From positions 64,001 to 128,000 of the IMG/VR virus record IMGVR_UViG_3300037042_004723: a stretch of 64,000 nucleotides of DNA; one strand, 5' to 3'. Source of the DNA: a virus. Below are positions 29,449 to 31,058 of the stretch, one piece after another (position 1 is the stretch's first letter; every line of letters starts with the position of its first letter). The notes below the pieces were generated by a model that saw nothing but the letters and a program-made list of their open reading frames with translations, ran no database searches and was not told the DNA's origin. The position numbers and the translations under genes were made by a program.

Positions 29449-29536
29449 TGGTGGAAGACAGAGGACTCGAACCTCAAGCCCGTCAGGGCTCCAACCGCCT
29501 TCCGGGCAGGTCAGGACCATGGCCTGTTTATCTTCC
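29449..29536 (-). tRNA. non-canonical 8/4 long-variable-arm tRNA, anticodon GGA (Ser-like)
   Basis: 8-bp acceptor GGAAGATA/TGTCTTCC; 4-bp T stem GAGG/CCTC; variable arm GAGCCC-TGAC-GGGCTT; A-CCA end. Confidence 0.8.
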
Positions 29537-29752
29537 ATGACGACGTTTTTTATCTGGGAGCGGGATGAGCTTGGCGATGGCTCCGCCTTTGATCGGCTTG
29601 CCGGCGGGGGGGTGGCGGATATGCGCCCATCTCTCTCTGGGCGGATCTCTTTTCACTTCCGTCGTGTGACCACATTGCTGGCAGTAGGTGATCATCGCTT
29701 CACCGGTCCGGTGAACATCGACGTGTTCGTATCCGCATTTGTCGCAAATCAA
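29528..29752 (-). CDS. small zinc-ribbon protein
   Basis: MICDKCG...YCQQCG. Confidence 0.55.
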   Translation of the reverse strand: MICDKCGYEHVDVHRTGEAMITYCQQCGHTTEVKRDPPRERWAHIRHPPAGKPIKGGAIAKLIPLPDKKRRHGR

Positions 29753-30406
29753 TCCCAGTCACCCCGCAGGTACTTTTTTAGCTGCCACTGTTTCCCGAGG
29801 ACGTGATCTGTCACGACTCCATCCTGGGATCTGATGGTCCGGCGCTTGTCTGCCCGCATTCCCGACCCCACTTGCTCTCTGCGTGACGACGACAGGGCTG
29901 ACGACCTTTGCTCGTTTGCAGCATCCCATATTCTTGCTCGCAATATCTCCAGGGCGGTTTCTTTGTTGCTGTGCTGAGAGCGCTCAGATTCACAGCGTAC
30001 AGAGATTCCGGTGGGGACATGAGTCAGTTGCACGGCACTGTTGGTGACGTTGCGGTGCTGCCCTCCGGCGCCAGATCCACGGCAGAAGTTCCACTCCAGA
30101 TCGTCGTCTCGAACGACTACTTGGGTAGCAGTTGGCTCAGGAAGAACGGCCACCGTAATCGTGGAAGTTTGCATTCTTCCACCGGATTTCTCCTGCCAGC
30201 GGTGTCCACCCGATTCGTTGGCAAACGCTACATTAGCGCCCTTGCCAGATACCCTGAAGACGATGAGTCCAGGGCGCTCGGTCAGAAGTTCGACGCTAAA
30301 GACACCTCCGGCTCCCCATCTTTGCGTAAATGGAGAACTGGTCTTGAACGAGGCGCTTCGAGTGATCTCCGCCCTCACCACTTCGGATTTCTACTATTGC
30401 CGACAC
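29749..30406 (-). CDS. miniature class-I peptide chain release factor expressed through a programmed +1 frameshift (about 218 aa)
   Basis: frame 0 (30406-30299) VSAIVEIRSGEGGDHSKRLVQDQFSIYAKMGSRRCL; +1 frame (30297-29749) SVELLTERPG...NESGGHRWQ...TSTITVAVLPE...GSGAGGQHRNVTNSAVQLTHVPTG...ERSQHSNK. Confidence 0.9.
30295..30309 (-). promoter_or_regulatory. prfB-type +1 ribosomal frameshift signal with a UAG stop
   Basis: GGAGG (30309-30305), TGT, CTT (30301-30299), TAG (30298-30296), C. Confidence 0.88.
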
Positions 30407-30878: not shown

Positions 30879-30919
30879 GAACTGAAACTATGCCATCAGA
30901 TCTACGAAGTCAAACACGG

Positions 30920-30992
30920 TGCGTGGGAAGGGATTCGAACCCTCAAACATCTGACCCTAAATCAGACCGCTCACCAGCTGGCGTACCCACGA
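30920..30992 (-). tRNA. tRNA-Leu(TAG), short variable loop, overlapping the upstream tRNA
   Basis: TCGTGGG/CCCACGC; TCTGA-TTTAGGG-TCAGA; GAGGG-TTCGAAT-CCCTT. Confidence 0.8.
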
Positions 30993-31058
30993 CCGGATTC
31001 GAACCGGCACTTTACCCGTCTTAAGCGGGTTGCTTCTACCAAATTGAGCTACGCGGGC
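30984..31058 (-). tRNA. tRNA-Leu(TAA), short variable loop
   Basis: GCCCGCG/CGTGGGT; ACCCG-CTTAAGA-CGGGT; GCCGG-TTCGAAT-CCGGT. Confidence 0.85.

Follow-up and report, generated by a model that had tools for sequence, protein, structure and literature searches.

The window analyzed here is a stretch of 64,000 nucleotides, bases 64001-128000 of an IMG/VR virus record that measures 197,279 bp and is rated as complete. The phage has a GC content of 57%, and all 8 of its tRNA genes lie within the window; no suppressor tRNA was found among the tRNA genes of the whole genome. The long ORFs of the phage genome end in TAG (39%), TGA (38%), or TAA (23%), and all eight gene ends that an initial annotation of this DNA had listed as TAG do carry this stop. 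TAG is an ordinary and frequent stop in this genome; amber usage is unusually rich for a phage of 57% GC. On the minus strand, the window contains a short gene for an RF1-type release factor that is divided between two reading frames. The locus comprises the following features.

30299-30406, minus strand: ORF1, 36 codons from GTG 30406 to CTT 30301-30299, encoding the first strand and helix alpha5 of release-factor domain 2, including the EGG tip motif
30305-30309, minus strand: internal SD-like GGAGG, situated inside CGG AGG (Arg-Arg), 3 nt before the putative slippery codon
30295-30301, minus strand: putative shift site CTT TAG C (CTT 30301-30299, TAG 30298-30296, C 30295); its stop is referred to below as the gate
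29749-30297, minus strand: ORF2 in the +1 frame, 182 codons plus TGA (AGC 30297 to TGA 29751-29749), encoding the remainder of domain 2, domain 3 with GGQ, and domain 4
30058-30066, minus strand: GGQ catalytic motif (GGA GGG CAG), invariant in family alignments
30184-30195, minus strand: site of a 4-residue deletion that removes the RF1 PxT tripeptide, with the gap over VPVT of Thermotoga maritima RF1
29528-29752, minus strand: downstream zinc-ribbon ORF of 74 aa with weak Zn_ribbon matches, whose TTG start overlaps the stop of the release-factor gene

The 3′ end of ORF1 reads AGC CGG AGG TGT CTT TAG C, and relatives carry ATG at the position of GTG 30406. The initial annotation had placed the true N-terminus in another frame, starting at GTG 30406 and ending at GGAGG-TGT-CTT-TAG-C, and had regarded the start given by the ORF track (GTG 30381) as non-homologous. 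Both statements were confirmed: ORF1 matches the RF1 profile (see below), and GTG 30381 sits in the +1 frame and adds 28 residues without homology. Readthrough of the TAG reaches a TAA after 20 codons, as had also been pointed out. The motif GGAGG-N3-CTTT-RR-C occurred once in the window and in none of 100 shuffles. A blastn search of the locus against GenBank phages gave no match. Directly upstream of the release-factor gene, we found neither a sigma-70-like promoter nor a copy of the leaderless promoter motif of the phage. A downstream partner gene kept across the family was not found; the zinc-ribbon ORF was present in 4 of 56 loci, which belonged to the closest relatives only.

Just 3′ of the zinc-ribbon ORF, a tRNA-like sequence (29453-29536, minus strand) displays an acceptor stem of 7 bp and a long variable arm, together with a T-arm that reads GGTTCGAGTCC; its CCA end is encoded. 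Its match to the Rfam tRNA-Sec model was sub-threshold (28 bits; E 0.028), and ARAGORN made no call; it may represent a degenerate class II tRNA with a Ser-like anticodon GGA, as judged by eye. About 500 bp upstream of the release-factor gene, ARAGORN called two Leu tRNAs with the anticodons tag and taa (30918-30992 and 30983-31058, minus strand) that overlap by 10 bases, and Rfam confirmed the taa one only. A phage tRNA-Leu(UAG), if real, would wobble-read the CUU of the shift site; the ARAGORN call is doubtful. A sister phage with a UGA gate (G001, IMGVR_UViG_3300015360_000024, loci L178-L187) has a genome of 194 kb and carries 44 tRNA genes compared to 8 here, and one ARAGORN call among its Leu tRNAs has the four-base anticodon 'taag'. 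The window phage seems to have lost most of the tRNA array present in this sister.

In a profile search, ORF1 corresponded to positions 114-144 and ORF2 to positions 165-340 of RF1, in the order in which these segments follow each other in RF1. The RF-1 domain (PF00472) was matched at 1e-30. When the two parts were joined, the 218-aa product gave a single unbroken alignment to residues 88-314 of T. maritima RF1 (E 4e-46) and also aligned in one stretch to phrog_19918. Judged from the alignment to RF1, the product consists of RF1 domains 2-4 with an intact GGQ and without domain 1. The score against TIGR00019 (prfA) was 178 bits, which lies under the equivalog cutoff of 423, with coverage of positions 114-340 of the 361 profile positions. 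The fold was modelled on a naturally unsplit relative standing in for the window protein (L046; 51% identical). For alignment depth, cellular RF1 segments replaced ORF1-only rows, which misaligned onto the GGQ region. The resulting AlphaFold model (pLDDT 90.9) superimposed on domains 2-4 of ribosome-bound RF1 with a TM score of 0.91 and an rmsd of 1.9 Å, and its residues 1-36 formed an integral strand and helix of domain 2. RF1 truncated to lack domain 1 showed peptide release in vitro and function in vivo according to work cited in PMC1586002, so that a factor consisting of domains 2-4 is plausible as an active enzyme.

Scans of viral contigs, metagenomes, and species genomes yielded 63 distinct complete relatives, which come from phages, metagenomes, and Myxococcota genomes and display the same layout down to 37% identity. 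CTT followed by a stop occupied the junction codon in all 63 relatives; elsewhere in the family genes, CTT accounts for 14.6% of Leu codons. A C directly followed the gate in 51 of 63 genes. CGGAGG was located 3 nt upstream in 36 of 63, that is, in 36 of the 37 relatives with Arg-Arg at this position, compared to about 1.5% expected from the Arg codon use of the same genes. The initial annotation had proposed a test of whether SD-N3-CTT-stop-C is conserved among homologs, which these counts address. A good SD was missing in about a third of the relatives, and the stimulator is therefore dispensable or replaced there. No stimulatory RNA structure was found at the shift site (z = -1.75); to our knowledge, the prfB frameshift needs none. 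Cellular RF1 genes recovered by the same scans showed no frame break and were full length. The best 120 matches in an independent protein database were all short, ORF2-only calls.

Both halves of the gene evolve as coding sequence. In its own frame, ORF1 showed dN/dS values of 0.07 to 0.22 against relatives, and ORF2 showed a value of about 0.1 in its own frame; both frames are under purifying selection, also between two copies that lack the PxT loop. Over the 108 nt of ORF1, the window (30299-30406) is identical to its 97% relative L007 (2392-2499), and the two ORF2 sequences differ at 30 of 546 nt; about 6 differences would be expected in ORF1. This identity could reflect recombination or an extra constraint on ORF1, and it was not seen against more distant relatives. 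Some rare variants of the cassette were also recorded. The unsplit relative L046 (313-987) has no gate and a continuous ORF, L045 (about 1390-1420) carries CTC TGA ATG in a single frame, which resembles a stop-start or readthrough arrangement and not a shift, and L040 (about 1320-1340) carries CCT TGA C. The terminal stop of the family genes is TAA in 31 of 63.

From the anatomy of the locus, its conservation, the selection acting on both frames, and the fold of the unsplit relative, we infer that the synthesis of a short RF1-derived factor, one protein of 218 residues, is gated by a real and conserved programmed +1 frameshift of the prfB type (probability roughly 0.85). Translation would begin at GTG 30406 and run for 36 codons. 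Once CUU occupies the P site and UAG the A site, the ribosome would pause, and during this pause the internal GGAGG would pair with the tail of the 16S rRNA. A fraction of the peptidyl-tRNA-Leu would slip from CUU to UUU, and reading would restart at AGC; the remaining ribosomes would terminate and free a 36-residue peptide. For prfB, it is established that the shift and termination compete at the stop in the A site. The rate of UAG termination in ordinary bacteria depends on RF1 alone. By the same mechanism, the slip would compete kinetically with termination, with a full-length yield inverse to the rate of UAG termination, and output should therefore rise when UAG termination by RF1 is slow. 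The initial annotation had likewise tied the phage factor to slow UAG termination, which the prfB mechanism supports; no result links the gate to host defense or to RF1 inactivation, and this part of the proposal is speculation. Where normal genes of this phage end in TAG, a C follows more often than any other base (24 of 84 TAG ends), and thus the stop context alone is not leaky.

Next to the invariant CTT, the identity of the gate varied. Among the 63 relatives, it was TGA in 42, TAG in 20, and TAA in 1, and the gates inferred from the residue after the junction in the best 120 matches of the protein database were TGA in 62, TAG in 29, and TAA in 3 cases. The gate of prfB is UGA, the codon read by RF2, and the near absence of TAA from the phage family fits, as it does in prfB, the need for a stop with a single cognate release factor. 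On the ORF2 tree, well-supported branches carried at least 8 to 9 gate changes, and parsimony counted 17, compared to a mean of 18.6 for shuffled labels. Within the window clade, this phage and L007 have a TAG gate, and the nearest relatives (85% and 78% identical) have a TGA gate. The gate showed no relation to local GC (p = 0.87), to the terminal stop of the gene itself, or to SD presence or PxT state. Among five phages, it did not track genome stop usage: this phage uses 39% TAG, its TGA-gated sister 31% TAG, and another TAG-gated phage 71% TGA. Since gate stops are swapped at a near-random level, amber sensing is an interchangeable local state and not a conserved purpose of the family. The proposal of the initial annotation thus holds for the presence of a prfB-type +1 cassette in a short RF1-derived gene, with UAG in this copy, but not for amber sensing as a conserved design. 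The free swapping of UGA and UAG speaks against a role that depends on a specific release factor.

The behavior of the gate would also suit a fixed attenuator, in which the shift is real but only keeps the factor scarce or sets the ratio of short peptide to full protein, with no selected RF1 sensor. The at least 8 random-looking swaps between UGA and UAG on the tree speak for it, as do the lack of a relation to GC, to the gene's own stop, and to genome stop usage and the complete loss of the gate in L046. However, the family, like prfB, almost never uses TAA (1 of 63 relatives; 3 of 94 matches from the protein database), which fits the selection of a single-factor stop, and a shift that competes with termination responds to the release-factor level by construction. 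We consider a pure attenuator unlikely, while rating it above the other alternatives.

A +1 frameshift at a CUU-stop is the textbook example of a gene that senses its own product. A true prfB-like autoregulatory loop, in which the phage factor terminates at its own UAG gate, has slightly lower odds than the attenuator. The family is of the RF1 type, and most relatives keep the residues for reading UAA and UAG, namely, the PPT (or PPN), the Gln, and the Thr. Where PxT is present, as in L012 and L021, a UAG gate could thus be self-limiting. Two thirds of the family, however, use UGA, a codon that is not read by RF1-type readers, and the window copy itself lacks the PxT loop. An RF1-type family with mostly UGA gates implies that autoregulation by codon recognition cannot be the general rationale.

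The PxT tripeptide of RF1 reads the second base of the stop codon. The stretch from HRWQ to GR comprises 4 residues in the window protein (HRWQ-EKSG-GR) and 8 in relatives (HRWQ-R(I/V)PPTEKR-GR), and in the alignment the 4-residue gap coincides exactly with VPVT of T. maritima RF1. The UAG feedback circuit envisaged by the initial annotation had left this loss unweighed. The elements for the first and third bases are kept, namely, the EGG tip encoded by ORF1 and the Gln and the Thr of QTS. The same 4-residue deletion was found in 5 of 165 family members at no fewer than three separate positions of the tree (4 by parsimony). Two loop-less, TAG-gated genes differed by 22 synonymous and 8 nonsynonymous changes (dN/dS 0.10), and the loop-less form is therefore still kept by selection. 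The loop-less protein possibly performs relaxed or codon-independent release. We tentatively suggest, as a reading with rather low odds, that it is a rescue factor of this kind, not specific for UAG and UAA, which would be made only when ribosomes linger at UAG. If true, the phage would possess a backup for times when termination fails, either late in infection or when the translation apparatus is attacked, and the recurrent exact loss of PxT (at least three times) under purifying selection would mark a repeated functional shift in a family that is always stop gated.

The production of two separate products, a 36-residue peptide and an ORF2 protein that is started independently (e.g., at GTG 30381) or by termination-reinitiation, is very improbable. 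Gene callers do annotate ORF2 alone, and the single-frame CTC TGA ATG of L045 is stop-start-like. Against this, there is no conserved start: 25 of 63 genes have no ATG, GTG, or TTG upstream of the junction in the ORF2 frame, and the first internal start of ORF2 lies anywhere from codon 2 to codon 71 in the 63 genes. Moreover, the SD is just 3 nt from CTT and thus too near for initiation, the invariant CTT would be useless for reinitiation, and residues 1-36 contribute a strand and a helix that are integral to domain 2 in the L046 model. Still less credible is an assembly indel, a pseudogene, or RNA polymerase slippage on the T run: sequencing errors do typically appear as a single-base frame break within a short stretch of T, but the identical break recurs at the same codon in 63 independent assemblies, which removes the concern of the initial annotation that CTTT might be an assembly insertion, dN/dS is about 0.1 in both halves, and three consecutive T do not suffice for productive transcriptional slippage.

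Our literature searches brought up no frameshifted RF1-type gene from phages or bacteria, and a +1 switch at a CUU-stop was found described only for bacterial RF2 and for a giant-virus factor. Public databases misannotate the genes reported here as 'release factor 1' fragments with a wrong N-terminus. Several known systems share parts of the arrangement. PrfH (RF-H, paired with RtcB2) is likewise a class I release-factor homolog that lacks domain 1, has a GGQ, and has an altered decoding region (PMC1586002; bioRxiv 10.1101/2025.01.09.632186), and it is a possible functional analogy for the loop-less copy. However, the window protein scores 178 bits against RF1 compared to 81 bits against the PrfH model TIGR03072 (cutoff, 166.65), the L046 fold has a TM score of 0.65 to PrfH compared to 0.91 to RF1, and no frameshift has been reported for prfH. 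RtcB (PF01139) had no match anywhere in the 197-kb phage genome, and no such domain was present in the neighboring ORFs. The recoded phages Lak, Jade, and Agate also carry class I release factors (RF1/RF2) near tRNA genes; these are full length, serve in genomes with a reassigned stop codon, and have no frameshift described (bioRxiv 10.1101/2021.08.26.457843), whereas in the window phage all three stop codons keep their meaning and a suppressor tRNA is absent.

The closest viral precedents are Mimivirus R726 (CUU UAG C) and Megavirus mg280 (CUU UAA C), viral release-factor genes that require a +1 shift; experiments in E. coli demonstrated this shift (Jeudy et al. 2012; PMC3521657). The statement of the initial annotation that no equivalent had been described is thus too strong. 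Unlike the phage gene, R726 and mg280 encode factors of the eRF1/aRF1 type, belong to viruses of amoebae, also need readthrough, and have no SD-based stimulator. Autoregulation is straightforward there, as eRF1 reads all three stops.

In mechanism, bacterial prfB is the closest system. It shares with the phage gene the SD-like element 3 nt upstream, CUU in the P site, a stop followed by C, and the rarity of TAA (PMC12421855), and in both cases the +1 shift leads into the frame that encodes the remainder of a class I release factor. The differences concern the factor and the position of the junction. The gene is of the RF1 type here, whereas prfB encodes RF2; the junction follows helix alpha5 of domain 2, near residue 122 in the numbering of T. 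maritima RF1, whereas prfB shifts at codon 26, in domain 1, and domain 1 is absent from the phage protein. The stop in the window is UAG, and the phage family interchanges UGA and UAG, so self-regulation via codon recognition is impossible for most of its members. In a 2025 survey covering over 12,000 bacterial genomes, TAG occurred in 0 of 8,164 prfB motifs and prfA showed no frameshifting, and the device has been held to be peculiar to RF2 (PMC12421855). Here, the same device occurs at a different codon position in an RF1-derived factor without domain 1, in large phages and Myxococcota, and with UGA and UAG as interchangeable gates, which points to a convergent or transplanted evolution of the cassette. 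The family thereby uncouples the CUU-stop device from simple autoregulation, and its UGA, UAG, TAA, ungated, and loop-less variants constitute a natural test set for what the gate senses.
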